Assembly: GCA_001029635.1 (NCBI GenBank)
Contig: CP011209.1
Location: 350,866 to 414,865 of the forward strand
Direction of reading: 5' to 3'
DNA from: Candidatus Wolfebacteria bacterium GW2011_GWB1_47_1
GTDB taxonomy: Bacteria > Patescibacteriota > Minisyncoccia > UBA6257 > UBA9933
Length of the DNA stretch: 64,000 bases
Position 1 is the stretch's first letter, and each line of letters begins with the position of its first letter. The notes below the pieces were generated by a model. It was not told the origin of the DNA. It saw only the letters and a program-made list of their open reading frames with translations, and did not search any database. Below, in pieces: positions 2,527-48,769 of the stretch. The translations under genes and the position numbers were made by a program.

Positions 2527-4272
2527 ATGGCATCTCTCAAATATATTTTTGTAACAGGCGGAGTAATGTCGGGAGTTGGAAAGGGTGTGGCTGCTGCATC
2601 TATTGCGAAGATCCTTCAGTCGAAGGGTTTTGCCGTCACCGCTTTAAAGATCGACCCGTATGTTAACGTCGACGCGGGGACGATGAACCCCACTGAGCAC
2701 GGTGAGGTTTTTGTTTTGGATGACGGTATGGAATGCGATCAAGACATGGGTAACTATGAGCGCTTCCTGAACACGAGCCTTTCCAGTGCGAACTATATGA
2801 CCACGGGGAGCGTCTATCTCTCATTGATCAACCGGGAGCGCAGCCTTGCATTTGAGGGTAAGTGCGTGGAGGTCGTGCCCCATGTACCCCTTGAGGTCAT
2901 CGAGCGTATCAATAAGGCGGCTAAAAAAGAAAAGGCTGATATCGTCATCGTTGAGATCGGTGGTACGGTGGGCGAATATCAGAACGTCCTATTCCTTGAG
3001 GCTGTGCGCATGCTAAAGGCGCGCAATCATGATGATGTCGCGTTGGTATTGGTCAGCTATCTGCCGCAGCAGGGCGAGGGAGGAGAGCTGAAGACGAAGC
3101 CAACCCAGTATGCAGTTCGGACACTCAACTCTGCTGCTCTGCAGCCGGATGTCATCTTGGCGCGTGCGAAGATCGCGCTTGATAAACCGCGCAAGGAAAA
3201 GATCGCGTTTAACTGCAATCTCGATAGCGATGCGGTCATTTCTGCTCCTGATGTAAAAAGCATCTACGATATTCCGATTAATTTCGAGCATGATAATTTG
3301 AGTGGTATTTTGATGAAGCGACTTAGATTGAAGCCGCGCAAGAACGACCTTAAAGATTGGAAAGCGTTCGTGAACAAGACGCATGCGGTTACTAAGCCGG
3401 TCAAGGTCGGCATTGTGGGAAAATATTTTTCGAGTGGCGAGTTTGTACTTGCGGATTCATATATTTCCGTCATCGAGGCGGTGAAGCATGCCGCCTATGC
3501 GGAGGGGAGAATTCCGGAGATCCACTGGCTTAATGCCGGCGACTTCGACCCGTTGGGTGTTGGCACGAAGATGTCAAAAGATAATCTGAAACTGTTAAAG
3601 CAGTATGATGGTGTTATTGTACCGGGTGGTTTTGGTAACCGTGGGATCGAAGGTAAGATCTCGGTCATCGGCTATCTGCGCGAGCAAAAGATCCCGTTCT
3701 TTGGATTGTGCTATGGTATGCAATTAGCCACCGTTGAATTTGCCCGGAACGTTGCAGGGTTGAAGGGTGCGCACACGACCGAGGTTGATAAAAAGGCTAC
3801 CTATCCGGTGATTGATATTTTGCCGGAACAGCGGGAGAAGATGGCGCAAAAGGAGTATGGCGCGACTATGCGATTGGGAGCATATCCTGCAGTCGTGGAA
3901 AAAGGTACTCACGCTCATATGGCGTATAAAGGAAGCCATTTTCAGATCGAGGGAAACAAGCGACGCAAGGAAGATAAACTGAAGCTTCCCGCGGACGAGT
4001 TGGTTATATTCGAGCGGCACCGCCATCGCTATGAAGTGAATCCGATCTATGTAGAGAAGTTGCAGGAAAAAGGTTTGGTATTTTCGGGCACGTCCCCTGA
4101 CCGGCGATTGATGGAAATTGTTGAATTGCCCAAAACGAAGCATCCTTTCTTCTTGGCGACGCAATTTCATCCGGAATTTACCGCGCGGCCGTTGGCCCCG
4201 CATCCGCTGTTCGTTGCATTTGTAAAGGCGGCGATACAAATGCCGAAAAATGGAAAAGGAAAAATGAAATAA
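2527..4272 (+). CDS. pyrG: CTP synthase
   Basis: N-terminal MASLKYIFVTGGVMSGVGKGV...DPYVNVDAGTMNP synthetase domain. C-terminal glutamine amidotransferase domain (GLCYGMQ...HPEF). The track ORF begins at TTG 2398; the true ATG is at 2527. Candidate promoter TTGTCC-17-TATAAT at 2488-2516 ends 10 nt before the ATG. Confidence 0.9.
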   Translation: MASLKYIFVTGGVMSGVGKGVAAASIAKILQSKGFAVTALKIDPYVNVDAGTMNPTEHGEVFVLDDGMECDQDMGNYERFLNTSLSSANYMTTGSVYLSLINRERSLAFEGKCVEVVPHVPLEVIERINKAAKKEKADIVIVEIGGTVGEYQNVLFLEAVRMLKARNHDDVALVLVSYLPQQGEGGELKTKPTQYAVRTLNSAALQPDVILARAKIALDKPRKEKIAFNCNLDSDAVISAPDVKSIYDIPINFEHDNLSGILMKRLRLKPRKNDLKDWKAFVNKTHAVTKPVKVGIVGKYFSSGEFVLADSYISVIEAVKHAAYAEGRIPEIHWLNAGDFDPLGVGTKMSKDNLKLLKQYDGVIVPGGFGNRGIEGKISVIGYLREQKIPFFGLCYGMQLATVEFARNVAGLKGAHTTEVDKKATYPVIDILPEQREKMAQKEYGATMRLGAYPAVVEKGTHAHMAYKGSHFQIEGNKRRKEDKLKLPADELVIFERHRHRYEVNPIYVEKLQEKGLVFSGTSPDRRLMEIVELPKTKHPFFLATQFHPEFTARPLAPHPLFVAFVKAAIQMPKNGKGKMK

Positions 4273-4282
4273 GAAACATAAA

Positions 4283-4320
4283 AAGCGCCCATCGGATGAA
4301 CCGATGGGCGTTGTTGTTTG
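4283..4320. terminator. Bidirectional rho-independent terminator
   Basis: gcgcccatcgg-atgaa-ccgatgggcg hairpin with T-rich tracts on both strands. Sits between convergent pyrG and the 4357..4965 gene. Confidence 0.6.
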
Positions 4321-4356
4321 TACCGAGATGCGAATGGATTAGAATAAGTCCTTCAT

Positions 4357-4965
4357 CTATTGGTCTACTGACTGGGATGAAAGAATAATATCGAAGGTGG
4401 GCATGCTGTGCATCTTATCTCCTCTACGCTGCACGATCTGTATTCCTTTGAACTTGTCGATCGCGTGTGCCATTACGGGCTTCCAGTCGAATGCGCTTCC
4501 GTGACTTGGTATGGTCATGTGCAGTAGATGCGAATATTGCTCTGTGACTTTCAAATTCATGCCTAGTGGGTCAATGCTTTCGCAGCCAAGGCGCTCTAGT
4601 GCCTTGTCGAGTTCATGGCCAACGCGATCTTTTACGCGAAATCCCTCATTGAGATCGAGGATGAGTTCCGTTTCTTCGGTATTCATTCTCGCTCTGCATC
4701 CTCCGATCCACGCAGAATTGTTTTCGAGTGGGTTGTCATTTCCTCGGATTACGATTCTTTTTCCTGATGTCTGCGTCCTATGTGCGACGTACTGTTCACC
4801 GTCGATCATGACGATGCGCAGGAGTGGATTGCGCATTGCTCGCTGTATAATCAGCTTCTTAAGCAGGGACTGATCTCGGGCGCTTCTCATTGCGAGTGTT
4901 GCCAAGCGTTGCAGGATGAGCATCTTTTGTCTCCATGCGTGTAATGTCCTATTGAGGGGTCTCAT
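4357..4965 (-). CDS. Hypothetical protein, possible 2H phosphoesterase (LigT/ThpR-like)
   Basis: Start chosen at MRPLNRT because of a GGGAGG SD 9 nt upstream. The internal start of the 231-aa track ORF was not used. Two HxTx motifs (AHRTQT and LHMTIP) about 95 aa apart suggest the 2H fold. Family assignment is weak. Confidence 0.35.
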   Translation of the reverse strand: MRPLNRTLHAWRQKMLILQRLATLAMRSARDQSLLKKLIIQRAMRNPLLRIVMIDGEQYVAHRTQTSGKRIVIRGNDNPLENNSAWIGGCRARMNTEETELILDLNEGFRVKDRVGHELDKALERLGCESIDPLGMNLKVTEQYSHLLHMTIPSHGSAFDWKPVMAHAIDKFKGIQIVQRRGDKMHSMPTFDIILSSQSVDQ

Positions 4966-5062
4966 CGTTGCTTCCTCCCTGTTTTTAAAATGATATTGCT
5001 GCGCTGATTTTGCCATTATTTTTACCCCTTGTAAAGAAATCCTTGAATTCAAGTACCGATTA

Positions 5063-5091
5063 TTGACTAAATCAATGAAATGATGTATATT
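5063..5091 (+). promoter_or_regulatory. Sigma70-like promoter TTGACT-N17-TATATT driving the leader peptide and cysteine desulfurase
   Basis: TTGACT at 5063-5068, 17-nt spacer, TATATT at 5086-5091 with TG immediately upstream. Predicted TSS near 5098. Confidence 0.4.
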
Positions 5092-5133
5092 TTTTTTAGT
5101 ATCTTATCGAATCAATATTTATTGGAGGATTCT

Positions 5134-5214
5134 ATGCGACACGACAGTAGCTACTCTTTATGCGATCCCTGCACTGGTTGTGGCGGATGTGGTTCTGGCG
5201 GCAGTCGCCGCTGA
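5134..5214 (+). CDS. 26-aa Cys-rich leader peptide MRHDSSYSLCDPCTGCGGCGSGGSRR (CxxCxxCxxC)
   Basis: GGAGG SD 6 nt upstream of the ATG. Four Cys codons sit at a regular 9-nt spacing. The ORF ends 38 nt before an intrinsic terminator, and the cysteine desulfurase gene follows. Confidence 0.4.
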   Translation: MRHDSSYSLCDPCTGCGGCGSGGSRR

Positions 5215-5251
5215 TCATCCTGGTTCGTTTATCCTACGGACTCTTGTATTT

Positions 5252-5278
5252 AAAGCCCCTTCAGGGGCTTTATTTTTT
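5252..5278 (+). terminator. Intrinsic terminator / candidate attenuator between leader peptide and cysteine desulfurase
   Basis: aaagcccct-tca-ggggcttt hairpin followed by attttttgg. Confidence 0.5.
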
Positions 5279-5315
5279 GGTTGCATTTTTGCTGTATAAT
5301 AGCTATATACCATAT

Positions 5316-6539
5316 ATGCAACGCATCTATTTGGATAACGCGGCGACCACGCCGCTTGATACTGAAGTTAAAAAGGCCATGGAGCCGTATTTTGACGATA
5401 TCTATGGCAACCCCAATTCGTTGCACTGGTTCGGCCAGCAGGCTCGCGCGGCTGTTGATTGGGCGCGGGAAACTATCGCAGATGCAATTGGCGCTCGATT
5501 TCGGGAAGTCATTTTTACCGGCTCAGCTACTGAGGCAAACAACCTTGCCTTGCGAGGCGCGATCAACAAGGCACGGCCGACTTTTACAGCGCTCTATGGC
5601 GATAAGCCAATGAAGGTTATTGTGTCTGCTATTGAGCATGATTCAGTTTTGGATACGGCTCGCGCGCTTGAGGAAGAAGGAGTTGAACTTGTCATACTTC
5701 CTGTTGATGTGAACGGATTTGTCGATGTGCAAGCGCTTGCCGATGCGCTCGATGAACGAACAGTCATTGTTTCGATCATGTATGCGAACAACGAGATTGG
5801 ATCCGTTCAGCCGATTACAGAAATCGCCGCGCAAATCGCGCAGTTCCGATCACGTGAGAATGCTTTGCCGTATTATCCACTATTACATGTTGATGCCGTG
5901 CAGGCGTTTCAGTTTTTGGATTGTACTGTTGATATGCTCGGCGTGGATATGATGACGCTTTCTGGGCACAAGATCTATGGGCCTAAGGGGGTCGGCGTGC
6001 TCTATGCGCGTACTATGGATAGTGTGACGCATATGCAAGACGACCGTATGCATATCATTAGTCCTCGGATGACGGGCGGTGGCCAGGAATTTGGCATGCG
6101 CTCGGGTACCGAGAATGTTCCGGCCATCGTTGGTTTTGCAAAGGCCGTTGAGCTTGCTGTTGCGCGTCGCACTGAATGTGCCGATCAGATCGCACGTCTA
6201 CACTCCCTGTTTTGGGAGCAGTTACATGGGGCATGTCCCGAGGTCGTATTAAACAGTCCTCATGCAGGTGATGCGCCTTATCTTCCCAATATCATAAATA
6301 TACATATTCCTGGTCAAAAAGGAGGGGAGTTGCTCATTGCGCTCGACCTGCAGGGGGTTGCCGTCTCGAGCGGGTCTGCGTGTGCTGCGCGTTCTGCAAC
6401 GCAATCGCATGTATTGCGAGCACTTGGATTTTCTGATGAGCGATCCAGGAGGAGCCTTCGGTTCAGCTTTGGCCGACATACGACGGCGCGAGATATTGAC
6501 GGTTGCATTGCTGCGTTGGTGCGGATCCTTGCCGCTTGA
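5316..6539 (+). CDS. Cysteine desulfurase (class V aminotransferase, IscS/NifS-like)
   Basis: YLDNAATTP start region, SGHKIYGPKGVGVLYAR PLP-lysine motif, SSGSACAARS active-site Cys loop. The 459-aa track ORF has a spurious N-terminal extension. The real start ATG 5316 lies 15 nt after TATAAT (5295-5300). Confidence 0.85.
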   Translation: MQRIYLDNAATTPLDTEVKKAMEPYFDDIYGNPNSLHWFGQQARAAVDWARETIADAIGARFREVIFTGSATEANNLALRGAINKARPTFTALYGDKPMKVIVSAIEHDSVLDTARALEEEGVELVILPVDVNGFVDVQALADALDERTVIVSIMYANNEIGSVQPITEIAAQIAQFRSRENALPYYPLLHVDAVQAFQFLDCTVDMLGVDMMTLSGHKIYGPKGVGVLYARTMDSVTHMQDDRMHIISPRMTGGGQEFGMRSGTENVPAIVGFAKAVELAVARRTECADQIARLHSLFWEQLHGACPEVVLNSPHAGDAPYLPNIINIHIPGQKGGELLIALDLQGVAVSSGSACAARSATQSHVLRALGFSDERSRRSLRFSFGRHTTARDIDGCIAALVRILAA

Positions 6540-6657
6540 CGATTGCGGTTTTTGCGGTTTGTTGGTATGGTTTGCATGCCCGATTTTCGGGGTATCACGG
6601 TTGTGGTATAGTATATAGGTAATATATAAGTAACACTCTATCGATATTTTGTTTTCA

Positions 6658-9318
6658 ATGAATAATTTCAACCGATTTACAATCAAAGCACAGGAAGCGT
6701 TACAGAATGCGCAGGACTTTGCCGCTAAGGAGAATCATGGCGAATTAAAGGCGTTACATTTGCTGGTCGCGCTCGTGACCGATGAGAGCACTCTGGTGCG
6801 CCCGCTGCTTGCCAAGGCGGGGGTGAGCGCTGATGAGGTGCGCTCGGGAGCTATCGTGGAATTGATGAACGAACCCAAAGCAATGGGGAGCGTGAATTTG
6901 TCGCAGTTATATCTTTCCCAGGAGTTAATGAACATTCTCGATAAGGCGGGGAAGATCGCGCAGCATCAGAAGGATGAGTATATTTCGTGTGAGCATTTGT
7001 TGCTGGCTATCCTTGAAGCCGGTTCCTCGAAGGCTTCGAAGATTTTAGTGGAGCTGGGATTCAAGCGTGATGCGGCGATCCGCATCCTTGCTCAGTTGCG
7101 TGGCTCATCGCGGATCACTGATGAAACGCCTGAGACCAAATTTCAGGTGCTTGAAAAGTATGGCGTTAATCTTACTGATATGGCGCGTGACGGTAAGCTT
7201 GATCCAGTTATCGGGCGGGACGAGGAGCTGCGCCGGGTTATTCAGGTATTGAGCCGCCGAACAAAGAACAACCCCGTATTGATCGGGGAACCGGGTGTCG
7301 GTAAAACGGCTGTCGTCGAAGGACTTGCGCAGCGCATCATCACTGGCGACGTCCCTGAACCGTTAAAGGACAAGGAGCTCGTTATGCTCGATCTGGGGGC
7401 TCTTATCGCCGGAACGAAGTTCCGTGGCGAATTCGAGGACCGCCTCAAAGCATTCATGCGTGAGGTCCAGAATTCGAATGGACGCATTATTCTGTTTATT
7501 GACGAGATCCACATGATTGTCGGGGCGGGTGCTGCTGAGGGTGCGATCGATGCATCAAATCTCTTGAAGCCGCCGTTGGCGCGCGGAGAGTTGCATGCGA
7601 TCGGAGCGACGACCATCAGCGAATATCAACGACATATTGAAAAAGACATGGCACTTGAGCGTCGATTTCAGCCGATCGTGGTGGAGGAGCCGACTATCGA
7701 AGACAGCATCGCGATCCTGCGTGGACTGAAGGAAAAATATGAACTGCACCACGGTATCCGCATTAGTGATGAAGCGATCGTGTCCGCAGTGAATTTGTCT
7801 GCCCGGTATTTGACCGATCGATTTTTGCCGGACAAGGCGATTGATTTGATCGATGAAGCATCTGCCGCCCGACGACTTGAATCGGAAAGCCTACCTGCCG
7901 AGATCGATAAGGTCCGTCATGAGATTATTAAGCTTGAGATCGAGAAGTCTGCTTTGTCGACTGAAAAATCCGAAAAAGCTAAAGATCGGCTCAAGGGGAT
8001 CGAAAAGGAATTGCACGTACTCAAGGAGCGCAATGATGAACTATCCGCGAAGTGGCATGCGGAGAAATTAACCTTCGAGGAATTTCACAATCTGAAAAAG
8101 AAAATCGAGGAGCTGAAACGCCAAGCTGAGCTTGCCGAGCGCGAGGGAAGTCTTGATAAGGTGGCAAAAATCCTGTACGGCGAATTGCCTCAGGCAGAAA
8201 AGGACCTCGCGGTGTTCGAGAAGAAGTTTATTGAAACAGGAAAGTCTAAGGGAAAGAAAAACGAAAGTGAAAAGTTCATCAAAGAGGCGATCGACGAGCA
8301 CGATGTTGCTGCGGTTGTTTCTAAGTGGACGCATATTCCTGTTACCAAGATGATTGAGTCGGAAGCCAATAAACTTTCGACCATCGAAGACCAATTACGC
8401 GCACGCGTGGTTGGGCAGGAAGATGCCGTAAGGGCCATTGCAAATGCCCTTCGACGAGCCCGTACGGGACTTTCGGACGAGAAGCGACCCTTTGGTTCCT
8501 TTATGTTCCTTGGACCTACCGGGGTTGGGAAGACCGAGCTTGCCAAGGCACTCGCCGAGATTATGTTCAATGATGAAAAAGCATTGGTTCGCGTCGACAT
8601 GTCCGAGTATATGGAACGACATTCCGTCTCTCGCCTGATTGGTTCACCTCCTGGTTATGTTGGTCATGAAGAGGGAGGTAAGCTGACCGATGCTATCCGT
8701 CATCGTCCCTATAGCCTGATCCTCTTTGATGAAATCGAAAAGGCACACCCTGATGTGTTTAATATTCTGCTACAGGTGCTCGACAATGGGCGCTTGACCG
8801 ACAGTAAAGGGAAGAGTGTTAACTTTAGAAATTCAATTATTATTTTGACCTCGAACGTGGGGAGTGAATATTTCCATGAAATGTCCAGGCTTGGATTTGA
8901 GACGACCAAGGATGAGGAGGTTGGGGCAGAACAGGAAGAGTTGTTTAAGGAGCGGGTTAATCTCGCACTGAAGGACACCTTCCGCCCCGAATTCCTTAAT
9001 CGACTGGATGAGATCATTGTATTCAATCCGCTGACGCCGAAGGAGATCGAATCGATTGTAGAGATACAAATCAATGAGGTACTGCATCGACTGCAGCAAC
9101 GAAATCTAAACGTAACCATCGACGCATCCGTGAAGAAGCATATTGCCGAGCATGGGTTTGATCCGGATTATGGCGCGCGACCCATTAAGCGGTTGATCCA
9201 GAAGACTATCTTGGATCAGTTGGCAGACAGGATCATTAAAGGGGAATTCAACAATGTTAAAAAGATTAAAATCAGCTTTAAAGATAGCCGTCTCAACATC
9301 GTTTCCACTCGCGCTTAG
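6658..9318 (+). CDS. clpB: ATP-dependent chaperone ClpB
   Basis: Clp N-domain, two AAA+ modules ([16 protein letters not shown]) and a long middle coiled coil. The track start 6649 is TTG; ATG 6658 gives MNNFNRFT. Confidence 0.9.
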
Positions 9319-35047: not shown

Positions 35048-37018
35048 TTAGTCAAACGTCAGTGCATCCACGATCTCGTCAATATTTGCCGTTGCTACGC
35101 CGACGACTCTGTCCGCTCCGCCGTAGTAGATGAACAGTTTTTTGCCGATCACGGTACTTCCGCAGGGAAATACGACATTGGGGATGATCCCATTTTTTTC
35201 GTAGTCCGTTTCCGGGGCGAAGATATAGTCGGTCGTTCGTGCCAATACGATCATCGGGTTATGCAGATCGAGTAAGAGTGCCCCCACCCGATAGACGCCT
35301 TCGTCGGAAACGCCATGGTAAAGAAGCAGCCAACCCTTCCCTGTCTTGATCGGGACCGATGCGATGCCGACCTTACGCCCATCCCACATTCCCTTGCGCG
35401 GTCCGATGATCGGGGTGAAGGTGTCTATCCGATCCCCGTCGAATTCAAGCGACTTTATCGGATCAAGGCAGATGTGGTCGTGTGTCCTATGGAACACAAG
35501 ATAATTGTCCCCGATCTTTTCGGGGAAAAGACAGGAATCCTTATCATCGACATCTGCAGGCGTGATGATCGCCGGCCACGACCAATCCCAATTTTTTTTG
35601 AGAAAATTTTTAACCGAAATGCTTGTTGCCGCGACTGCCGGGGGGTGTACTCCGTCGTAGGCGGTGTAGAACATATAAAGCATGTCATCGATCTGCGTGA
35701 TGCGTGGGTCTTCGCATCCCGAGTTTCCCGGGTGCACTTTCTTTTCGAATGACTCACGAGGTACGTAAATTGGATGTTCGACCCGTTCCGTTATTGAGAG
35801 GCCGTCCTTGCTGTACGCGTATCCCAATACCGACGTGTCATCATCGCCCATTGCTCGATATACGATGTGCACCTTCCCGTCGATTGCGACGGCTGCAGGA
35901 TTGAATACTGCCTTGTTTTCCCATGGGTGATTGTCGAGTGGCTCAAGAATAGGGTTCTTTTTGTGCCGAGTTACAACCGGTTCCTTCCTCATGCTTTTAA
36001 GGAGCGCCTGCAGATTTACATCGGCTCGGCAACAGGTCGTATCCGTTGCCCCATAGTAGATGTATAATTCCTCTCCCTTGATGGTCGCGCCAGATGGGAA
36101 GATGACGTTCGGTATCTGTCCGAATTCTTCATATGTTTCTTCGGGGATAAGGAGTGGGCTGTCGGTGCGAGCGATAATCTTCTTGGGATCGTTGAGATCG
36201 AGCAGTAACGCCTCGATGCCGAAGATCTTATTGTCGCTGAAATAGTTTTGAATATGCGAATAGATCACCAGCCAACCCTCTTTCGTTTTAAGTGGTACTG
36301 CGCCTATCTCTACCTGATCATGTTCCGTTCTTCGGACGATCATACGGTGGGATTCTATTTCTGCGTGCCACTTGTCCCAATAGGCTGTTGACCAAATCTG
36401 TTCGATGGAGTCGAATTCTGCCAAGCATATCTTTACTGGAGGCATGTCGGTGTGCGCCGCCAATAGAGCGACATACTTGCCGTCGATTTTTTCAGGGAAG
36501 AGTGCCATTGCCTTCGCGTTGAACGGCGTTACCAAATGTCGTTCGTCAATCGTTTCGAAATCCTTTGTTACGGCGACGGCAATGCGGATGCCCTCCGCCC
36601 GGAAGGGGAACGTGCCGAGTGCCGTATAGAAGATATAATAGGTGTCTTCGATTTTGGTGACGCGCGGGTCTTCGCAACCATAGCGTTCCCATTCGTATTT
36701 TGGGGTAATTAGCGGCTTACGTGGCTCGTACCAGTGGCCATCCTTACTTACGCCATACCCGATAGTCGAAAGACTTAGTTCGTGTCCCTTGATATATTTC
36801 ATTTCTGACATTGCGCGATATACACAATGAAACTTCTCATCATCTTGGATGGGGCACCAGTTGAAGGCCGCAAACGATTCCCATGGATGGTCAATGGTTG
36901 GGCTGATAATTGGGTTGTAGAGTGAGCGTTTTACGACAAACATAATGGGATAATTTAAAATTTGAAATTCGAAATTTTGAAATACGAAATCAGATCGTTT
37001 GACTTCACTTTGCTTCAC
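35048..37018 (-). CDS. Tandem-duplicated GH130 (DUF377) glycoside phosphorylase-like protein
   Basis: Two repeats, each with GCEDPR[VI]T.I.D..Y.FYTA motifs (YGCEDPRVTKIEDTYYIFYTA and SGCEDPRITQIDDMLYMFYTAYDG). Confidence 0.7.
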   Translation of the reverse strand: MKQSEVKRSDFVFQNFEFQILNYPIMFVVKRSLYNPIISPTIDHPWESFAAFNWCPIQDDEKFHCVYRAMSEMKYIKGHELSLSTIGYGVSKDGHWYEPRKPLITPKYEWERYGCEDPRVTKIEDTYYIFYTALGTFPFRAEGIRIAVAVTKDFETIDERHLVTPFNAKAMALFPEKIDGKYVALLAAHTDMPPVKICLAEFDSIEQIWSTAYWDKWHAEIESHRMIVRRTEHDQVEIGAVPLKTKEGWLVIYSHIQNYFSDNKIFGIEALLLDLNDPKKIIARTDSPLLIPEETYEEFGQIPNVIFPSGATIKGEELYIYYGATDTTCCRADVNLQALLKSMRKEPVVTRHKKNPILEPLDNHPWENKAVFNPAAVAIDGKVHIVYRAMGDDDTSVLGYAYSKDGLSITERVEHPIYVPRESFEKKVHPGNSGCEDPRITQIDDMLYMFYTAYDGVHPPAVAATSISVKNFLKKNWDWSWPAIITPADVDDKDSCLFPEKIGDNYLVFHRTHDHICLDPIKSLEFDGDRIDTFTPIIGPRKGMWDGRKVGIASVPIKTGKGWLLLYHGVSDEGVYRVGALLLDLHNPMIVLARTTDYIFAPETDYEKNGIIPNVVFPCGSTVIGKKLFIYYGGADRVVGVATANIDEIVDALTFD

Positions 37019-37054
37019 TCACTGGATAGAACAAAAAATTTGTAGTGGGGGTGT

Positions 37055-38923
37055 TTATGCAAGTTTCGTTCTGGTGATGTGCGCTGTCCGCATGGGGAGT
37101 GTTTCTTCGGATACTCTATCCTGCTTTACCGTTTCGAGAAAGGTATCAAGCGGTGCAGTTGCTACGCAGGCAACACTGTCTGCTCCCCCGTAGTAAACGA
37201 AGAGCGTGCCATCTTTAATGATGCTGCCGCAGGCAAATATAACGCCACGCTTTGCACCTTCGTTCTCGTACCATTCATTCGGCTCCAGAATGGGAACGTC
37301 TGATCGGTGCAGTATTTTCGTCGGATCAGTTTCGTCCAGAAGCATTGCACCCAGCTTATATCGATCGGGGTCGCGCTTGTCCATGGCGTGATAGAGTACA
37401 AGCCAGCCGTCTTTTGTCCGTAATGGGGGAGTCGCGGCTCCGCGCATGAGGTTATCCCATCGAGTCCACTCGCCTTTGTTGGAAAACGGACTTTCAATCG
37501 CCATTTCCGCATCCATCGGGTCGTCAAAATAATCGATCCGTATTCGGGGATTGATTGCGTGCAGGAACGCGTATTTGCCGTTGATCTTTTCGGGGAACAT
37601 AACCCAGTTTTTTTGGATCTGTTCGGGTTTTGAAATGAGGATCGGTTCCGTCCAATCCCAGTTCTTTTGCAGGAAGTTCGCCTCGGTTATTGAGGTTAGC
37701 GCCATCCCTGGCGGATGATACCCATCGAATGCGGTGTAGGTCATGTAGAGCATATCGTCCACCTTTACCATGCGTGGATCTTCGCATCCGCTCCAGCTGC
37801 CACCCGACATATATGCATTGGTGTATGGCTCTTGTTTTGCCTCGATCTTCGTGTAATGTTCCTTCGCGATGTAGACCGGCTTTTCCGAACGGTCTTCAAA
37901 ATTGATGCCATCTTCGCTTGATGTATATCCTATATAGGAAAGCCCGTTGGAGCCGATTGCCCGATAGAGTAGATGCACCTTGTTATTGAGATACACGGCT
38001 GCAGGATTGAAGGTTGCTTCACATTCCCATTCCTTATGCGCGCGCGGTTCGATGATCGGATTGCTTGGGTGCCGTTCGAGCGCCGTTGCCAATTCCACCG
38101 ACTGCGGACTACAGAGGGATAGTGGGAGTATTGCCGAAATTACCCCGTTCTTTTGCGTGCGCCAATAGGTGTGCACCTGCCCATTGTAATAGATTGTGCC
38201 AAGCGACATCGCCGGGGCATCTCCCTTCGCGAGGGTCGTTTCCCAAATAGGGAATGCCGATCGCCACTTCGCCCGATAGGGTTGGTCGTACGCAAACAAT
38301 GCCGCGCCAATAAGAAGATGGGTTGCATCGTGTTCATAGTCTGTCGCGTCATAGACTGCGAGAATCCCTTCGTTGATCGTCGTCGCTCCGATGACCCGCA
38401 ATGCCGCGTGGTCGAATTCTCCGGTACGGCGTTCGATAAGCGGCCCGGTAATATGCCAATCTTGGAAGTCCTTTGTGACAGCGGCTCGAATTGATTCGTT
38501 TCCCGTATAGGCGACGAAGTGATCTTTGTACGCATGATCCGGAACGATGGCGATGGGTTCGTTCACAAACGGTGTCTTATGCACCACGTGAAATGTCGCA
38601 CCATCATCGGAAGAGGCGACTACGCGCTCCGTTTTGTTGCGCACGGCTCTGATGTAAGTAAGATACTGCGTTTTGCCGTCTGCCGTGATATGAAAATCTG
38701 ATGTATGCGTAAGTGGCTCATGTTTCCCTGTTACGCCAAGAATGATAACGTCGTTTGTGAATGAAAAATGCACGCCATCGGGGGCGGTGAAAAGGGATAA
38801 TTTCGATGTCGAGGTAAGCGGGAGAACGTACAGAAGTGCAGGAATATCACCAAGCATGGTGACGGCGACCGGGATCATTGTGTTATTGTCTGGTGCTGCT
38901 GCTTTTTTCATACGCATGTACAT
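37055..38923 (-). CDS. GH130 (DUF377) family glycosidase/phosphorylase-like protein with an extra N-terminal propeller-like domain
   Basis: SGCEDPRMVKVDDMLYMTYTAFDG in the C-terminal half, about 60% similar to the C-half of the 35048 gene. Confidence 0.7.
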   Translation of the reverse strand: MYMRMKKAAAPDNNTMIPVAVTMLGDIPALLYVLPLTSTSKLSLFTAPDGVHFSFTNDVIILGVTGKHEPLTHTSDFHITADGKTQYLTYIRAVRNKTERVVASSDDGATFHVVHKTPFVNEPIAIVPDHAYKDHFVAYTGNESIRAAVTKDFQDWHITGPLIERRTGEFDHAALRVIGATTINEGILAVYDATDYEHDATHLLIGAALFAYDQPYRAKWRSAFPIWETTLAKGDAPAMSLGTIYYNGQVHTYWRTQKNGVISAILPLSLCSPQSVELATALERHPSNPIIEPRAHKEWECEATFNPAAVYLNNKVHLLYRAIGSNGLSYIGYTSSEDGINFEDRSEKPVYIAKEHYTKIEAKQEPYTNAYMSGGSWSGCEDPRMVKVDDMLYMTYTAFDGYHPPGMALTSITEANFLQKNWDWTEPILISKPEQIQKNWVMFPEKINGKYAFLHAINPRIRIDYFDDPMDAEMAIESPFSNKGEWTRWDNLMRGAATPPLRTKDGWLVLYHAMDKRDPDRYKLGAMLLDETDPTKILHRSDVPILEPNEWYENEGAKRGVIFACGSIIKDGTLFVYYGGADSVACVATAPLDTFLETVKQDRVSEETLPMRTAHITRTKLA

Positions 38924-40028: not shown

Positions 40029-40085
40029 GGAATGACAGGCGATTTTAGTGCAGTAAATAAGGTCTTTATGCTATACTATTATAGT

Positions 40086-41315
40086 ATGGCCGCAATAGAC
40101 AAGGAATCAATCGAAAAAATATTGAAGCAATCAGAAGACCAGATCTCTATTATCGATCTCGTGAAAGAGATCATTGAATTTGCGTACATCTCACGCGCAT
40201 CGGACATCCACCTTGACCCATTCGAGGATAAGCTGATCGTACGACTCCGTATCGACGGCGTCATGCACGACATGTTTCATATTCCGAAGAGTATTCACCC
40301 TGAGGTCATTAGCCGCATCAAGGTGCTTTCTGGATTGCGAACGGATGAACACCAGATTCCGCAAGATGGACGATTGCAGTTTCTTACGTCTGATAAGATT
40401 AAATTCGATATTCGTGTTTCTATCGTCCCGACGTATCATGAGGAAAATACCGTTATGCGTCTTTTGATTCAGGAAGGGCAAGCTGCTCGTGAACTCGAGA
40501 CTATGGGATTTTCTGACCGCGATCTCGCGGTCATCAAAAATGCGATCGCAAAACCATTCGGCATGTTGTTAATCACTGGGCCAACCGGTTCCGGAAAGAC
40601 GACTACGCTCTATACGCTGTTGAAGCGTCTCAATACGCCGGACGTTTCCATCATTACCATTGAGGATCCGGTAGAATTTTCACTTGAGGGAGTCGATCAG
40701 ATCCAGGTGAATTCACAGACCGGTCTTACCTTTGCTAATGGGTTGCGCGCCATCTTGCGTCAGGATCCGAATATCATCATGGTTGGAGAGATCCGAGATG
40801 AAGAAACGGCGGCTATCGCCGTCAACGCCGCGTTGACGGGTCACTTGCTACTTTCCACACTACACACTAATGACGCCGCAACGACATTACCTCGGTTGCT
40901 CGACATGGGAATCGAGCCGTTTTTGATCGCGTCAACCGTCAATATTGCTGTTGCCCAGCGCTTGGTTCGCAAGATCTGTCCCGTCTGTAAGCAAGAGAAG
41001 AATTATTCCGTTTCCGCACTTGAAACGCTTGGCGCCGCATTTCCTGCGGGTACGATTACAGCCGATATGGTCTTTTATGAAGGCACGGGATGTAAGACAT
41101 GCAACAATACCGGATATCTTGGCCGTCTTCCTATCTATGAGATCATGGACGGGACCGATGCGATCCGCGAAGCCATCATTGCCCGCTCAAGCGCCGCCGA
41201 CCTCAAGGCTATCGCTATGCACGAGGGGATGACCACCATGCTACAGGATGGCATCTATAAGGCATCACAGGGGCTCACTACCCTAGAAGAAATACTTCGC
41301 GTTATTCATGGATAA
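40086..41315 (+). CDS. pilB: Type IV pilus / type II secretion assembly ATPase (PilB/GspE family, short form lacking the N-terminal GSPII_E_N domain)
   Basis: Walker A GPTGSGKTTT, Asp/His boxes, and a C-terminal tetracysteine CPVC...C..C. ATG 40086 lies 8 nt after TATACT, so it looks leaderless. Confidence 0.8.
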   Translation: MAAIDKESIEKILKQSEDQISIIDLVKEIIEFAYISRASDIHLDPFEDKLIVRLRIDGVMHDMFHIPKSIHPEVISRIKVLSGLRTDEHQIPQDGRLQFLTSDKIKFDIRVSIVPTYHEENTVMRLLIQEGQAARELETMGFSDRDLAVIKNAIAKPFGMLLITGPTGSGKTTTLYTLLKRLNTPDVSIITIEDPVEFSLEGVDQIQVNSQTGLTFANGLRAILRQDPNIIMVGEIRDEETAAIAVNAALTGHLLLSTLHTNDAATTLPRLLDMGIEPFLIASTVNIAVAQRLVRKICPVCKQEKNYSVSALETLGAAFPAGTITADMVFYEGTGCKTCNNTGYLGRLPIYEIMDGTDAIREAIIARSSAADLKAIAMHEGMTTMLQDGIYKASQGLTTLEEILRVIHG

Positions 41316-42453
41316 TCAACTCCCTAACACAAGCTCAGCTCCCGAGGCGACCAAGCCGAAGGTTTCGGTTGGCGATTCTTTGAATCGCATGTTTTCGAAT
41401 GTGTTCACAAGCGTTTCGCTTGCCGAGCGCATTATGTTCGTAAAGCATATGTCCATGATGATTCATTCCGGCATGACGGAAGTGGAAAGTTTGCGTCTTA
41501 TTCGTAGCCAGATCCGCAGTAAGGGATTTTTGAAGATCCTCGACGATATCATCGGGAACATCGAAAACGGACAATCTCTTTCTGTTGCGCTGAGCCACTA
41601 CCGGAACGTATTCGGTGATCTGTTTATCAACATTATCAAGATCGGAGAGATCAGTGGAACATTATCGGAAAACCTCGATTATCTTGGTCTTGAAATGAAG
41701 AAGAGCCAGTCACTGCGCTCCAAGGTTCGCGGCGCACTTATTTACCCTGCAGTCATTTTGGCGGCAACTATCGGTGTGGTTGGTGGGTTGATTTTCTTTA
41801 TCCTGCCGAAGATCCTCCCAATTTTTAAAAGTTTAAAGGTCACTCTTCCTATTACGACGCGTGCATTGATGTATCTTTCTGATACGTTGCGATCGCACTA
41901 TATTCTTATCGGCCTGGGATTTATTCTTTTTATTATATGTTTGTTTGTACTCCGCTCGATCCCTACGACGCGTTATATTATGCATCGCATGCTATTGTCT
42001 ACGCCTATCTTCGGAACGATCTCGATCGGATTCAATATGGCAAATATGACCCGTATTCTTGGTATGCTACTTAAGAGTGGTGAGAAGATTGTGCAAGCGG
42101 TTTCGATCACGGCTGACGCATCATCCAATCTTGTGTATAAGAAGGCATTACGCGAGGCGGTTGTCGAGGTGCAGCGCGGCAAGACGCTGTACGCCTATTT
42201 TGAAGAACATGAACACCTGTTCCCTCCGACGGTCAGTCGCATGATCGAGGTAGGGGAGAAGACGGGAAATCTCGATAATAATCTTGCCTATCTTGCGGAA
42301 TTTTATGAGAACGAGGTCGATGAAGTGACTAAAAATCTTTCGGGTATCCTTGAACCTATTCTACTGGTTGTTATGGGGGTTGCGGTTGGGTTTGTGGCGT
42401 TGGCTATTATTACACCGATATATGGGATTACGCAGGGCCTTAAAACAAAATGA
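41308..42453 (+). CDS. pilC: Type IV pilus inner-membrane platform protein (PilC/GspF family)
   Basis: Two GspF repeats. Overlaps pilB by 8 nt. Confidence 0.8.
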   Translation: MDNQLPNTSSAPEATKPKVSVGDSLNRMFSNVFTSVSLAERIMFVKHMSMMIHSGMTEVESLRLIRSQIRSKGFLKILDDIIGNIENGQSLSVALSHYRNVFGDLFINIIKIGEISGTLSENLDYLGLEMKKSQSLRSKVRGALIYPAVILAATIGVVGGLIFFILPKILPIFKSLKVTLPITTRALMYLSDTLRSHYILIGLGFILFIICLFVLRSIPTTRYIMHRMLLSTPIFGTISIGFNMANMTRILGMLLKSGEKIVQAVSITADASSNLVYKKALREAVVEVQRGKTLYAYFEEHEHLFPPTVSRMIEVGEKTGNLDNNLAYLAEFYENEVDEVTKNLSGILEPILLVVMGVAVGFVALAIITPIYGITQGLKTK

Positions 42454-42462
42454 TGTATTATT

Positions 42463-42556
42463 GGTGAGCTGCTGTGTTGCGGGACCCCGGTACTTCAGTC
42501 GCCGTACTGGTAGTACGTCTTCTTCGTACCGCTCCCGCGCCTTGCACCTCACTTAA
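42463..42556 (+). ncRNA. Conserved structured RNA-like element, copy a, directly 3' of pilC
   Basis: Core GGTGAGCTGCTGTGTTGCGGGACCCC...CGTACTGGTAGTACG...CTTCTTCGTACCGCTCCCGCGCC...CACTTAA. Compare the findings entry. Confidence 0.5.
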
Positions 42557-42589
42557 TACTACATCGTTTTGACCGCTATATTTTAAAAT

Positions 42590-44362
42590 ATGAGAATGCG
42601 TCAATCTAAACATAATAGCGGCTTTACGCTCATTGAACTGCTTATCTCTACAACGTTGTTTGCCGTTATCGGTACATCGACGTATTTTGCATTCCAGAAT
42701 GTATTGGAAGCGATCTCACGTAGTCAAGTGCGGAGCGACGCCATTTCATTGATAAAAGGAGAGATCGAAACGGTGCGTAATATGCCGTATGTCGATGTGG
42801 GTATCGAAGGAGGGTATCCTGCCGGAAAGTTATTGGCAGATAAGACACTTGCCTTCAGCGGTAATTCTTTTAGGTTAAATACCTACGTCCGCAATATCGA
42901 TGATCCGTATGATGGGACGCTTGGCGGTATGCCGAACGACACAGCCCCTGCCGATTATAAGATTGTGGAATATCAAATCGAATGTACGACCTGCGGGCCG
43001 TTTGTACCGATCGCCATGACGACGACAGTTTCCGCCAAAGGACTTGAAAGCGCCAGTACGAATGGATCCTTATTTATTACTGTTTCCGATGCAAGTGGTA
43101 ACCCTGTTCCCGGGGCTAGTGTGCATGTGGTCAATTCGAAATTAAGCCCGACCATCACTATTGACGATATTACCAACACCGAGGGGATGTTGCAGCTTGT
43201 TGATATTCCGCCGAGCGTCACGGGATATGAAATCACCGTAACTAAGGCAGGCTATTCGACTGACAAAACGTACGATCTTACATTGCCGGGCAATCCCAAT
43301 CCATTGAAGCCGCATGCAACGGTTGCGACCCAACAGGTTACTTCAGTAAGTTTTTTTATTGATCGCGTTGGAACCATAAACGTCGCGGCTAAGGATAATC
43401 AATGTGCGCCGATACCCGGGCTTGGTTTTTCGCTTTCGGGGACTAAGCTTGTCGGGACCGGACCCGACGTTCTGAAGTATCCTGCCACGACATTCACAAC
43501 CGATACCGCAGGGGAAAAGACCATTTCTAATTTGGAATGGGATAGTTATACCATTGCTAGTATTGGAGCGCTTGAATTTACCGGGACGGTCCCGTTTGTT
43601 CCGTTCACATTGAATCCGGGAGTGACTATGGACGTAGCGCTGCTATTCGAGCCAAAGACAATTAAATCGCTTTTGGTTACTGTTGTCGATGATGTCAACC
43701 AGCCGGTCGACGGTGCGAGTATCCAATTAGTCAAGACGGGGGCCTACGATCAGACGCTGTATACGGCTCGACGCACTATCGGGCAGACCGATTGGGGTGG
43801 CGCGGATTATGCCGTGCAAAGTGGTGGGGTTGGGTATGATAGCCCGACAACCGAACTACAGGCGCATGCATCAGGTAGCGGTACTACGAGTACGGAATGG
43901 GTCGTATCGAATACGTATGATATGGGAACGAACAGCATAACCTACTATCATTTGCGATTTGATGCACAGCTGCAGCCGGCACATCCGAGTCCTGACGCGG
44001 TCCGTATTCAGATTGCGACTAATAATGATAATGCGACTTGGAATTTTGTCGGTCCTGATGGAACGGACAGTTCGTACTTTACGACGAGTAACGCGGTATT
44101 ACCCACGGTGCTTGACGGTAAGCGTTACCTGCGATATAAAATCGATTTTTATCTTGACGGAGAGACGACCGTTACTTCGTTCAAAGATATTGCGATTGAT
44201 TTCAGTTCGAGCTGTACTCCCACCGGACAGGCTTTGTTTAATGCGCTTGGGCCGGGAACCTATAGTATGACAATCAATAAGGCCGGGTTCCAAACATATA
44301 TCGATGCCTCGGTATCCATCAGTGAGGATTGGCAGCAGTATAAGGCGACGCTGACAAGATGA
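42590..44362 (+). CDS. Large (590 aa) protein with prepilin-type N-terminal cleavage/methylation domain (giant minor pilin / pilus-tip candidate)
   Basis: N-terminus MRMRQSKHNSGFTLIELLISTTLFAVIG is a class III signal. Downstream domains are carboxypeptidase-regulatory-like and Ig-like beta domains. The ATG is 7 nt after TATATT. Confidence 0.7.
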   Translation: MRMRQSKHNSGFTLIELLISTTLFAVIGTSTYFAFQNVLEAISRSQVRSDAISLIKGEIETVRNMPYVDVGIEGGYPAGKLLADKTLAFSGNSFRLNTYVRNIDDPYDGTLGGMPNDTAPADYKIVEYQIECTTCGPFVPIAMTTTVSAKGLESASTNGSLFITVSDASGNPVPGASVHVVNSKLSPTITIDDITNTEGMLQLVDIPPSVTGYEITVTKAGYSTDKTYDLTLPGNPNPLKPHATVATQQVTSVSFFIDRVGTINVAAKDNQCAPIPGLGFSLSGTKLVGTGPDVLKYPATTFTTDTAGEKTISNLEWDSYTIASIGALEFTGTVPFVPFTLNPGVTMDVALLFEPKTIKSLLVTVVDDVNQPVDGASIQLVKTGAYDQTLYTARRTIGQTDWGGADYAVQSGGVGYDSPTTELQAHASGSGTTSTEWVVSNTYDMGTNSITYYHLRFDAQLQPAHPSPDAVRIQIATNNDNATWNFVGPDGTDSSYFTTSNAVLPTVLDGKRYLRYKIDFYLDGETTVTSFKDIAIDFSSSCTPTGQALFNALGPGTYSMTINKAGFQTYIDASVSISEDWQQYKATLTR

Positions 44363-44387
44363 TTTACGACCAACAACGTATAACGGA

Positions 44388-46037
44388 ATGCGAACATTTT
44401 TACTCATCATTGCTATAGGAACATTGATTATGACGCCGCTGCGTTCTTTTGCGGCGGAAGAAAAGTTTTTCGAATTCGCTACTGATGTCGGCGTGCCGAT
44501 TGAGATTCCGACCGGATCCATCGCGATCCAGGAATTCAAAGTCCATAATGATTATATCAATGCCATCGATCTTTGGTTCGATAATGCCGGATCTTCGGGG
44601 AGCGCGACAGTTACCTTTCTCGATTCTTCCAATGCCGTGCTGACATCTAAAAGCGTCACCATCGCCCCTAGCGATCCTTTTTACACAGGACAGCAATTGC
44701 ACGTCAGGTTTAGTAAGACGGTCGGCATCACGTCCGGTTCGTGGTATAAAATAAGGATCACGAGTAATGCACCCAAATTGCGGTTGTATGGCGTTAAGCG
44801 AGTTCAATTTGTCGAGCACGATGCACCGTATCCGATCGACAGCTCGGTTGGGGGTTCATCGGTGAACGGAGAATCGCAGATCGCGGTGTTTAAATTTGCG
44901 CTGTATGAAGAGACTGACGCTGAAGCCCCGATCATTACCAATGCAAGTTCCACGATCTCCGGTCCCGATACGATGCAAATCGCATTTAATGCGAACGAGC
45001 TTGTCGATCGCATGGTGTCTTATACACGTATTGGGTCGGGAATAGTGACCACGATCGGATATACCGGCAACTACTCCATTTGTTTTGAGGACATTTTTGC
45101 TTGCCCGCTTACGATTGATACCCAGCGAGATGCTCTATATACCTACCGATTGACCGTTCGTGACAGCTGGGGGAATGAAGCATTTTTTGACGGGGCATTC
45201 GAAAGTTGGAAGCCGGGCACTCCTGTCCCTCCGGCCGATCCCACCGTTCCCTTTGTGGCTCCTCCCGCAGAGGCGCCTTCATCACCGACTGAATCGCCTG
45301 TGGTTTCTGTAACGATCACCGATGCGCGCATTGTAGCGCTTGCCTATAATTCCGTGCAGTTGTCATGGAATACTAACAAGGCCGCCAATAGTTCATTGGT
45401 CGTCAGTACCGATCCTGTCGGTGCGCAGGTCGTTTCCACAGTCACTACAGGCGTATATGAATTGGTCCATACAATCTCGACAGGAAAGGGCATTGCTGCC
45501 GGAATTAATTATTATGCGACGATCATTTCTCGTGATGAGGCCGGCAGTATGGCTGCGCAGGTGCTTCCATTTACTGCTCCGAAGGCCGGTGCTGATGCAC
45601 CACCTGCCGTACCCGAAGGTTCTTCGACGCCAACAGAGACGTTGCAGACATCCGTATTGGGAGAACAGGGGCTTGTCTCCATTGTCTGGGATCCTCTTGT
45701 GGGTGGAGAACCGAGTAATGGGTATCGCATTGATATCATCGATGCGCAAGGAAATCTGATTGAATCGCGTACCGTTGCTCCGGGAACGTATGCGATCAAT
45801 GTGGACGGTCTTGCGGGTGGAGAATATCGCGTCCTTGTGTATGCCGATGAAAAAGGAGTGGTCGAAAAAGTTGCCGCACCCGCGACCGTTGTCATTCCAA
45901 AAAGAGCCGAGCCGATCGATACGTACGAACTAATCAAGCGACCGATCGTGTACATCCCATCCATTCTTTTTGCGCTGCTTATCCTGGGATTGGCTATCTA
46001 TAGCAGAGTACAAAAGAAAATACCCAATAAAAAATGA
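44388..46037 (+). CDS. Secreted cell-surface protein with fibronectin-III-like repeats and a C-terminal membrane anchor
   Basis: Signal peptide MRTFLLIIAIGTLIMTPLRSFA-AEE. C-terminal TM helix PIVYIPSILFALLILGLAIY plus a basic tail. Confidence 0.6.
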   Translation: MRTFLLIIAIGTLIMTPLRSFAAEEKFFEFATDVGVPIEIPTGSIAIQEFKVHNDYINAIDLWFDNAGSSGSATVTFLDSSNAVLTSKSVTIAPSDPFYTGQQLHVRFSKTVGITSGSWYKIRITSNAPKLRLYGVKRVQFVEHDAPYPIDSSVGGSSVNGESQIAVFKFALYEETDAEAPIITNASSTISGPDTMQIAFNANELVDRMVSYTRIGSGIVTTIGYTGNYSICFEDIFACPLTIDTQRDALYTYRLTVRDSWGNEAFFDGAFESWKPGTPVPPADPTVPFVAPPAEAPSSPTESPVVSVTITDARIVALAYNSVQLSWNTNKAANSSLVVSTDPVGAQVVSTVTTGVYELVHTISTGKGIAAGINYYATIISRDEAGSMAAQVLPFTAPKAGADAPPAVPEGSSTPTETLQTSVLGEQGLVSIVWDPLVGGEPSNGYRIDIIDAQGNLIESRTVAPGTYAINVDGLAGGEYRVLVYADEKGVVEKVAAPATVVIPKRAEPIDTYELIKRPIVYIPSILFALLILGLAIYSRVQKKIPNKK

Positions 46038-46645
46038 TGCAACAACGCACACCCAGATCGAATAGCGGGTTTACGCTTGTCGAGGTATTGATTAGCCTCG
46101 CCCTTTTTGCCGGTATTGCGCTTATTATCGGTACGTTCATGAAGTCTATTTTTGATTATCAGTTGCTTTTTACGCAACAGTTGACCGCACAGCAAGAGAT
46201 TGAAAATACATTTGCATCCATGATTCCCGAAATTCGATCGATGACCCCCTCTGCATTGGGCGGGTATGCCATCGGTCAGGTGTCGACGAGTTCATTGACG
46301 TTTTATGACGATATCGATATGGATGGCATCGCCGACCAGATCCGCTACTTTTTGAGCGGTACGACCCTGAAAAAAGGAGTCACCAAACCTACCGGAAATC
46401 CACTGATCTATATTGGTGCGAATGAGGTAGCGACTGACATGGCAATCAATGTTGTCCCCGGTGATCCAATCTTTACGTATTATGACCTGAATTTCACCGG
46501 CACCGAGCCGGCAATGTCCTACCCGATCATCATTTCCGATATCCGCTTAATCCGTATATCATTGACTGTTAAGGATCCGGATAAGACCGCCCCGCTTTCC
46601 GCGAGCATCGAGATCGTTCCGAGAAATTTGAGAACCAATTTATGA
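46034..46645 (+). CDS. Prepilin-type N-terminal domain protein (minor pilin / pseudopilin)
   Basis: SGFTLVEVLISLALFAGIALIIG. ATGA overlap with the upstream gene. Confidence 0.7.
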   Translation: MMQQRTPRSNSGFTLVEVLISLALFAGIALIIGTFMKSIFDYQLLFTQQLTAQQEIENTFASMIPEIRSMTPSALGGYAIGQVSTSSLTFYDDIDMDGIADQIRYFLSGTTLKKGVTKPTGNPLIYIGANEVATDMAINVVPGDPIFTYYDLNFTGTEPAMSYPIIISDIRLIRISLTVKDPDKTAPLSASIEIVPRNLRTNL

Positions 46646-48201: not shown

Positions 48202-48319
48202 CGCGCAAATGCGCGGGTCATTCCGGTGGAGACAGGGGATTGTTGCCGGTAATATCATCTTATAGTATAATAATCAGTAAACGGAAAGGTCGAGGATTAT
48301 ATCATCATTTTCATCACCA

Positions 48320-48754: not shown

Positions 48755-48769
48755 AAATAGAACACTTTA

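Follow-up and report, generated by a model that had tools for sequence, protein, structure and literature searches.

A selected cysteine-rich mini-gene upstream of a NifS-like cysteine desulfurase in Candidatus Wolfebacteria: a candidate metal, Fe–S or sulfur-handling micro-protein

The 64,000-nucleotide stretch of Candidatus Wolfebacteria bacterium GW2011_GWB1_47_1 analysed here (GTDB lineage Bacteria; Patescibacteriota; Minisyncoccia; UBA6257; UBA9933; NCBI GenBank assembly GCA_001029635.1, contig CP011209.1, positions 350,866 to 414,865 of the forward strand), hereafter the window, carries a very short, cysteine-rich open reading frame (ORF), the mini-ORF, directly upstream of a gene for a cysteine desulfurase. 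Bases 5063–5278 would constitute a self-contained transcription unit of about 180 nucleotides (nt), the mini-gene, made up of a promoter, a 36-nt leader with a GGAGG motif, a 26-codon ORF and a terminator. The predicted promoter is of the sigma-70 type (5063–5091, plus strand), with TTGACT at 5063–5068 and TATATT at 5086–5091 separated by a 17-nt spacer; it matches the consensus at ten of 12 positions and is the top promoter-like site returned by a consensus scan of 4300–6800, with a predicted transcription start at about 5098 that accounts for the length of the leader. The GGAGG Shine–Dalgarno (SD) motif (5124–5128, plus strand), as read from the sequence, ends 5 nt before the ATG of the mini-ORF (5134–5214, plus strand, with the TGA stop at 5212–5214), which encodes the peptide MRHDSSYSLCDPCTGCGGCGSGGSRR, with cysteines at residues 10, 13, 16 and 19. 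An intrinsic terminator (5251–5278, plus strand) begins 36 nt past the stop codon and comprises a stem-loop (5251–5272) of 9 base pairs, five of them G–C, with a 4-nt loop, followed by TTTTTT up to 5278. Between the stop codon and the terminator lies a further small hairpin (5222–5242, plus strand) that does not overlap the terminator arms; small hairpins of unrelated sequence occupy the same position in each of the five related loci inspected (L091, L092, L093, L124 and L125).

The downstream gene (5316–6539, plus strand) encodes a 407-residue cysteine desulfurase of the NifS/IscS type (group I), which matches the Pfam class-V aminotransferase family Aminotran_5 with E = 3e-68. In NCBIfam it matches NifS (2e-104) and IscS (6e-98) best, in both cases short of the equivalog cut-off, and its translation shows the SSGSAC loop and the GHK lysine. 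The same protein is found on contig LCPB01000005.1 of assembly GCA_001003425.1, and the closest species representative by this enzyme, also a Candidatus Wolfebacteria, shares 66% identity. The first-pass annotation of the locus had proposed the promoter, the GGAGG, the 26-codon ORF with a cysteine at every third codon over four positions, the terminator and the desulfurase start at 5316, and each of these was found where it had been placed. The mini-ORF is not called as a gene in any of the public records examined, which cover both the window population and its relatives.

The relatives compared were contigs encoding desulfurases 65–82% identical to the window enzyme. Ten contigs from the same population, with identical proteins, are 100% identical to the window in the intergenic region, and are therefore uninformative for tests of conservation. 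A search for a Cys-rich mini-ORF upstream of orthologous desulfurases, suggested when the locus was first annotated, recovered homologues in six Wolfebacteria-like contigs; together with the window these make up a family of seven members, the desulfurases of which are 68–100% identical to that of the window. The mini-ORFs of the relatives span 18–24 codons, so that the family peptides range from 18 to 26 residues: MELIFSADQTLCDPCTGCGGCGSK in L091, MSDESCFCDPCTGCGGCK in L092, MQRATDSSVCDPCTGCGGCG in L093, MERAIWSCDPCTNCGGCK in L124, MSDGSCFCDPCTGCGGCK in L125 and MEKISWYMLCDPCTGCGGCK in L127.

A ten-codon core, CDPCTGCGGC (5161–5190, plus strand), is near-invariant across the seven sequences, being exact in six of the peptides and altered by a single Gly-to-Asn change in that of L124, and the CxxCxxCxxC spacing is invariant in all seven. 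At the nucleotide level, nine of the ten core codons vary at their third position, and first and second positions are constant except for the Gly-to-Asn change; the probability that nine variable sites would all be third positions is 7e-7. The Asp, Pro, Thr and Gly residues of the core are held as strictly as the Cys residues, through synonymous changes. The segments flanking the core are free both in sequence and in length, with 7–11 residues before it and 1–7 after it, and TGA, TAG and TAA are all in use as stop codons. The recurrence of the mini-ORF in six related contigs with codon-periodic substitutions places it beyond chance, and the combination of third-position variation with near-constant first and second positions indicates that the peptide sequence, and not the Cys codons alone, is selected. 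As shown by this pattern of substitutions, the mini-ORF is protein-coding and its peptide is under purifying selection, and the ten-residue core would be the only constrained part of it.

The elements surrounding the mini-ORF recur with it. GGAG or GGAGG stands at the equivalent place in all seven family members and a terminator lies 3′ of the mini-ORF in all seven loci. The complete set of a promoter with 17-nt spacing, GGAG(G) and a terminator was found in the window, L091, L092, L093, L125 and L127, with equivalent promoters scored in L091, L093 and L127, and an alignment of the window with L091, L092 and L093 shows no change within the TTGAC and GTATAnT blocks. L124 is the exception, its mini-ORF standing directly behind the preceding gene. 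A perfect small hairpin, UGCACCnnCUGCGGnGGGUGCA, is formed by the core codons of three loci (L092 532–553, L125 164–185 and L124 9883–9904); the window has no such hairpin, and the structure probably arises incidentally from the codons for Cys and Gly.

The mini-gene is linked to the desulfurase gene. Six of the seven carriers have the two genes side by side, with the mini-gene on the 5′ side, and in the seventh, L093, it lies 1.7 kb upstream with two genes between. The surroundings of the pair change from locus to locus: upstream there is a 202-residue protein gene on the minus strand, pyrG, or murD with a 110-residue protein gene, and downstream there is clpB or an HtrA-like gene, which leaves the desulfurase as the only gene constantly near the mini-gene. 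In the window, the divergent 202-residue protein gene (4357–4965, minus strand) has the SD motif GGGAGGAA, and its product has no Pfam or NCBIfam match; homologues of 34–56% identity, usually encoded behind pyrG, are present in L091, L092, L123 and L124. This gene was considered as a dedicated partner of the mini-gene and rejected, as L123 possesses it without a mini-ORF and L093 and L127 show the reverse.

A second conserved sequence block is found between the mini-gene terminator and the desulfurase ATG. In the window it comprises TTGCAT (5281–5286), TATAAT (5295–5300) and TATATA (5304–5309), all on the plus strand, and just 5′ of the desulfurase ATG of the window (5281–5316) and of L001, L091–L093 and L124–L128 it follows the clade pattern TTGACC-N8-TATAAT-N3-TATATA-N6..10-ATG, which is clear in nine of the 12 Wolfebacteria-clade loci and loose in L126; L095 and L123 retain only a TACAAT box 6 nt 5′ of the ATG. 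If TTGACC is combined with a 17-nt spacer, TATATA becomes the −10 element and the transcript would begin near the A of the desulfurase ATG; if TATAAT is taken as the −10 element, the leader would measure about 9–12 nt, and in the window at most about 9 nt. The desulfurase gene lacks an SD motif in 11 of the 12 clade loci, the window included. The putative promoter together with the missing SD motif suggests that the desulfurase mRNA is leaderless or near-leaderless, and the gene would be transcribed from this promoter of its own, 3′ of the mini-gene terminator. The block is kept in L001 and L128, which have no mini-ORF, and in L093, in which the mini-ORF is elsewhere. The spacer preceding the desulfurase gene of L001, a relative with 66% identity, contains instead of a mini-ORF a 55-residue Lys-, Thr- and Gly-rich ORF (2679–2846, minus strand) with a GGAGG SD motif and a terminator behind it.

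The order of promoter, short ORF, terminator and gene, which all carriers but one show immediately before the desulfurase, had led the first-pass annotation to propose a cysteine-sensing, ribosome-mediated attenuator. In such a device, ribosome stalling at the Cys codons would change the folding of the RNA, with the result that the terminator at 5251–5278 is bypassed and the desulfurase is read from the upstream promoter. Leader ORFs keyed to cysteine do exist in mycobacteria (bioRxiv 10.1101/834739), so that the mechanism, which had been thought undescribed, has a precedent. Nevertheless, the folding analysis put forward as a check of that proposal yielded no alternative hairpin that competes with the terminator. 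The terminator is present in the minimum-free-energy fold of every locus, the window among them, and when its 3′ arm is removed its 5′ arm remains unpaired (L092 and L125) or pairs weakly with unrelated places; there is thus no antiterminator and no consistent partner for the 5′ arm. The best duplexes between the 5′ arm and upstream RNA reach −6.0 to −8.4 kcal/mol in six loci and −10.4 kcal/mol in L127, compared with means of −6.5 to −10.0 kcal/mol for shuffled controls and −8.2 to −14.7 kcal/mol for the terminators themselves, so that the upstream duplex does not surpass shuffled sequence except in L127, where it is somewhat better. The sole complementarity to the 5′ arm is provided by the GGNGGN of Gly codons within the ORF, and these codons would be hidden under a ribosome that had stalled at Cys.

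Other observations also argue against attenuation. The conservation of D, P, T and G through synonymous changes is conservation of the peptide rather than of sensing codons, and the Cys codons, four among the 26 codons of the mini-ORF in the window and one at every third codon, are never adjacent. A predicted promoter lies between the terminator and the desulfurase ATG, also in loci without a mini-ORF, and as the desulfurase gene has no SD motif, a read-through transcript would offer an internal AUG without a ribosome-binding site. In L093 the unit has a promoter and a terminator but no coupling to the desulfurase; the gene behind it is unrelated and hydrolase-like, with a promoter and an SD motif of its own. 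Furthermore, the regulatory logic would be inverted, since relief of termination under cysteine starvation would raise the level of a cysteine-consuming enzyme. Searches of the 64-kb window against Rfam gave no family at the gathering threshold anywhere, that is, no tRNA, riboswitch or other known RNA. A known RNA family at the locus itself was also considered and rejected, as bases 4900–5400 gave just sub-threshold, terminator-like noise at E ≤ 10, and Rfam leader models scored far below threshold (Phe_leader reached 18 bits, its gathering score being 55, and matched the wrong strand). Attenuation of the desulfurase by the mini-gene unit is not supported and most likely does not occur, and we regard the proposed cysteine-sensing mechanism as very unlikely. 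The case illustrates that a layout of promoter, short ORF, terminator and gene is insufficient as evidence of attenuation.

A very short ORF that is located 5′ of another gene and conserved in its amino-acid sequence is also what would be expected of a regulatory nascent peptide of the TnaC, SecM or ErmCL type, with the core stalling the ribosome from within the exit tunnel in response to a small-molecule cue. However, anything between one and seven codons separates the core from the stop codon, depending on the locus, the downstream gene has no SD motif to be unmasked, a strong intrinsic terminator and a predicted promoter separate the ORF from that gene, and the downstream gene is a different one in L093. 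Such an arrest mechanism appears to us extremely improbable. The mini-gene is, on the contrary, very probably an autonomous, selected micro-protein gene and not an attenuator.

The nature of the conserved core offers some indication of what this micro-protein may do. Four evenly spaced thiolates in a Gly/Pro-rich loop would be able to ligate a metal centre, and the preferred candidates are an Fe–S cluster or, alternatively, persulfide sulfur received from the neighbouring NifS-like enzyme, so that the peptide could act as a minimal cluster or sulfur acceptor, as a carrier or as a modulator of the desulfurase. Indeed, the segment DPCTGCGGC resembles the DxCxxCGxC loop of clostridial ferredoxins, and three of the five sequence matches in the Protein Data Bank (PDB) are such ferredoxins aligned on that loop. 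CxxCxxCxxC is, moreover, the spacing quoted in published accounts of a designed 12-residue 4Fe–4S peptide (PMC9933472, PMC12329447). The small metal- or Fe–S-binding peptide that had been mentioned in the first-pass annotation as an alternative to attenuation is accordingly the reading that fits best. A role of the peptide in metal or Fe–S binding or in sulfur relay is plausible, with a likelihood that falls somewhat short of even, and its constant proximity to the desulfurase gene suggests a functional partnership between the two products. Taken as a whole, the statement that this is an autonomous, selected micro-protein gene whose product may serve a metal, Fe–S or sulfur role beside a NifS-like enzyme is given a probability of roughly 0.45.

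Several points weigh against this assignment. The PDB ferredoxin matches are not significant (E = 0.76–7), a profile of six family peptides found no match in the PDB, and the peptides have no Pfam or NCBIfam match, even at E = 10. The designed peptide alternates L and D residues, and an all-L natural peptide may for that reason not fold likewise around a cluster. Five close relatives whose flanks were fetched (L001, L095, L123, L126 and L128) have the desulfurase without a mini-ORF, which implies that the peptide is dispensable there or encoded elsewhere, and the adjacency of the two genes among close relatives could be plain inherited synteny. The scaffold protein, by contrast, supplies one further point in favour of the assignment. 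In a tblastn comparison with E. coli IscU as the query, an IscU-like scaffold gene (within loci L003–L080, at about 4200–4700) was found beside the desulfurase, and mostly directly after it, in 50 of the 80 other lineages, among which Patescibacteria are numerous. No IscU-like gene was detected by the same method in the Wolfebacteria-clade loci for which DNA was fetched or in the whole window, and no scaffold was found by Pfam among the 58 ORFs of the window. Against this point, the absence is clade-wide and not specific to the loci carrying the mini-gene, and a scaffold may be encoded elsewhere in the genome.

The same evidence of a selected, autonomous coding unit would apply equally to a thiol peptide that binds no metal, such as one with a redox-active disulfide, one that docks onto the desulfurase as an inhibitor or activator, or one that acts on an unrelated partner, its adjacency to the desulfurase then being inherited synteny. 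The patchy distribution among close relatives is in line with such a role, and the core motif presumably also fits the DnaJ-type CxxCxGxG pattern. On the other hand, four cysteines at a strict three-residue spacing within a Gly-rich loop are a classic signature of metal or cluster ligands, and the fact that the mini-gene has stayed beside the desulfurase in at least four different gene neighbourhoods speaks for a connection between the two. A non-metal role is consequently considered unlikely, while still carrying appreciable weight.

A further explanation is that the mini-ORF encodes the precursor of a ribosomally synthesized and post-translationally modified peptide (RiPP), for instance a thiazole-type product like the heterocycloanthracins, a Cys-derived cofactor or a chalkophore, for which the desulfurase would be a sulfur donor or a bystander. 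The Cys-Xaa-Xaa periodicity and the Cys/Gly/Ser composition recall the cores of thiazole/oxazole-modified microcins (TOMMs; PMC2674419), a conserved core with variable flanks is typical of cofactor-type precursors, and maturation genes can be situated far from the precursor gene (Haft, PMC2674419). However, the segment preceding the core is unconserved and, with 7–11 residues, too short for a recognition leader, while known precursors have 50–70 residues and a conserved leader (PMC2674419). No YcaO, radical SAM, lanthipeptide or MNIO-type enzyme is encoded among the 58 ORFs of the 64-kb window, none of these enzymes is present in the Pfam-annotated flanks (up to 10 kb) of L123, L124, L127 and L128, and no export or immunity genes are found nearby; the only uncharacterised neighbour, the 202-residue protein, co-occurs inconsistently with the mini-ORF. 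A RiPP precursor is therefore judged quite improbable.

Returning to the preferred assignment to metal, Fe–S or sulfur handling, its most far-reaching form would be that a peptide of 18–26 residues by itself ligates a [4Fe–4S] or [2Fe–2S] cluster or carries a persulfide, which would make it the smallest natural ferredoxin-like or scaffold peptide known. This specific version is improbable on our estimate. If it were correct, the peptide would be a natural counterpart of the 'protoferredoxin' peptides built in origin-of-life chemistry, and its partner would be a NifS-type desulfurase, in ultra-small Wolfebacteria whose desulfurase gene has no IscU gene in the usual place beside it. More generally, a role in Fe–S binding or sulfur relay would move the lower size limit of natural Fe–S or sulfur-carrier proteins further down, allow ideas about primordial Cys-Gly-rich cluster-binding peptides to be examined on a natural example and show a route by which the genome-reduced bacteria of the candidate phyla radiation (CPR) might simplify Fe–S biogenesis. 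As an 18-mer is accessible by chemical synthesis, the idea of a metal-binding peptide is cheap to test. Whatever the function, a strongly selected gene of 18–26 codons has been missed by every gene caller.

The mini-ORF peptides form a new small-protein family of narrow distribution. Searched with a 44-residue, upstream-extended form of the ORF (a minimum of 40 residues being needed), a collection of 5.8 billion predicted protein clusters contained no protein sharing three 5-mers with the query, and tblastn of the peptides against plasmids gave no match. A scan of viral contigs returned only two chance matches. In a metagenome collection that did not return the source population itself, the pattern C[DENK]PCxGCGGC gave 25 matches, nearly all of them out-of-frame chance occurrences in G+C-rich DNA. 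The only possible distant relative from that scan, L102 1574–1645 (MSRHTNSNQKSGCEPCEGCGGCDR...), is truncated where the contig stops and may be a chance match as well; it lies in an A+T-rich spacer of a contig with 60% G+C, behind an ORF with a CxxxCP motif that appears by eye to be SCO1/SenC-like. Among all desulfurase loci, ORFs of 12–45 residues with at least four cysteines and an SD motif were not found outside the Wolfebacteria clade, and a literature search on Fe–S assembly and Cys-rich small proteins in Patescibacteria and CPR bacteria found nothing relevant.

The remainder of the window includes two GH130 phosphorylase-like genes in tandem, both with a long N-terminal extension, and two clusters resembling type IV pilus or type II secretion systems (T2SSE, T2SSF and several N_methyl pilins), this content being distributed over 35048–38923 (minus strand), 40032–49430 (plus strand) and 58115–60861 (plus strand). 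An F-type ATP synthase operon occupies 49.8–57.1 kb, and an efflux set of TetR, HlyD and AcrB genes beside an Nramp transporter occupies 25.4–31.1 kb.

Among known regulatory systems, the closest in appearance are the polycysteine small ORFs (sORFs) of mycobacteria (Canestrari et al., bioRxiv 10.1101/834739), which are likewise very short, unannotated, Cys-containing ORFs located 5′ of a gene of cysteine or sulfur metabolism. The mycobacterial sORFs are leaderless, whereas the mini-ORF has a predicted leader of about 36 nt with GGAGG, and they contain at least two consecutive Cys codons, whereas none of the seven peptides described here contains a CC dipeptide. They act by unmasking, from an RNA duplex, the SD motif of the next gene on the same transcript, in contrast to a next gene that has no SD motif and a predicted promoter of its own behind a terminator. 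Finally, the genes that they control produce cysteine, while the neighbour of the mini-gene consumes it. The trp, his, phe and leu attenuators share with the mini-gene the order of promoter, short ORF, intrinsic terminator and structural gene, but possess antiterminator or anti-antiterminator alternatives that have no equivalent here. Their leader ORFs hold a cluster of codons for the amino acid sensed; the four Cys codons of the mini-ORF recur at every third codon and belong to a conserved peptide motif. Only the sensing codons are conserved in trp-type leaders, unlike the core of the mini-ORF, in which D, P, T and three G residues are also conserved, and such attenuators have no promoter between terminator and gene, at the place where the mini-gene loci show a conserved putative promoter block.

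With regard to the peptide itself, the clostridial 2[4Fe–4S] ferredoxins (Pfam Fer4) have a DxCxxCGxC loop similar to DPCTGCGGC, with Gly following Cys residues in both. The Fer4 motif is nevertheless CxxCxxCxxxCP, and the CxxCxxCxxC of the mini-ORF peptides lacks the CP, its fourth cysteine lying three residues before the triad and not in a distal xxxCP; the beta-alpha-beta fold of ferredoxins is likewise absent from a peptide of just 18–26 residues. Ambidoxin, the designed 12-residue 4Fe–4S peptide, has the same CxxCxxCxxC spacing, yet is described as heterochiral and synthetic. The TOMM precursors of the heterocycloanthracin/sonorensin group (Haft, 2009, PMC2674419) resemble the mini-ORF in their Cys-Xaa-Xaa periodicity, Gly-rich spacers, uncalled short genes and possibly distant maturase, and differ from it in that a conserved leader about 35 residues long is combined with numerous variable repeats, as opposed to a fixed ten-residue core with no leader and no cyclodehydratase in view. 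The position of the mini-gene is analogous to that of IscU/NifU and IscX, which are encoded beside NifS/IscS-type desulfurases and have Cys ligands available. IscU is, however, a protein of about 128 residues with a defined fold and is related to the mini-gene peptide neither in sequence nor in size, and genes for Fe–S scaffolds lie downstream in the operon, whereas the mini-gene lies upstream of the desulfurase, on what would be a transcript of its own.

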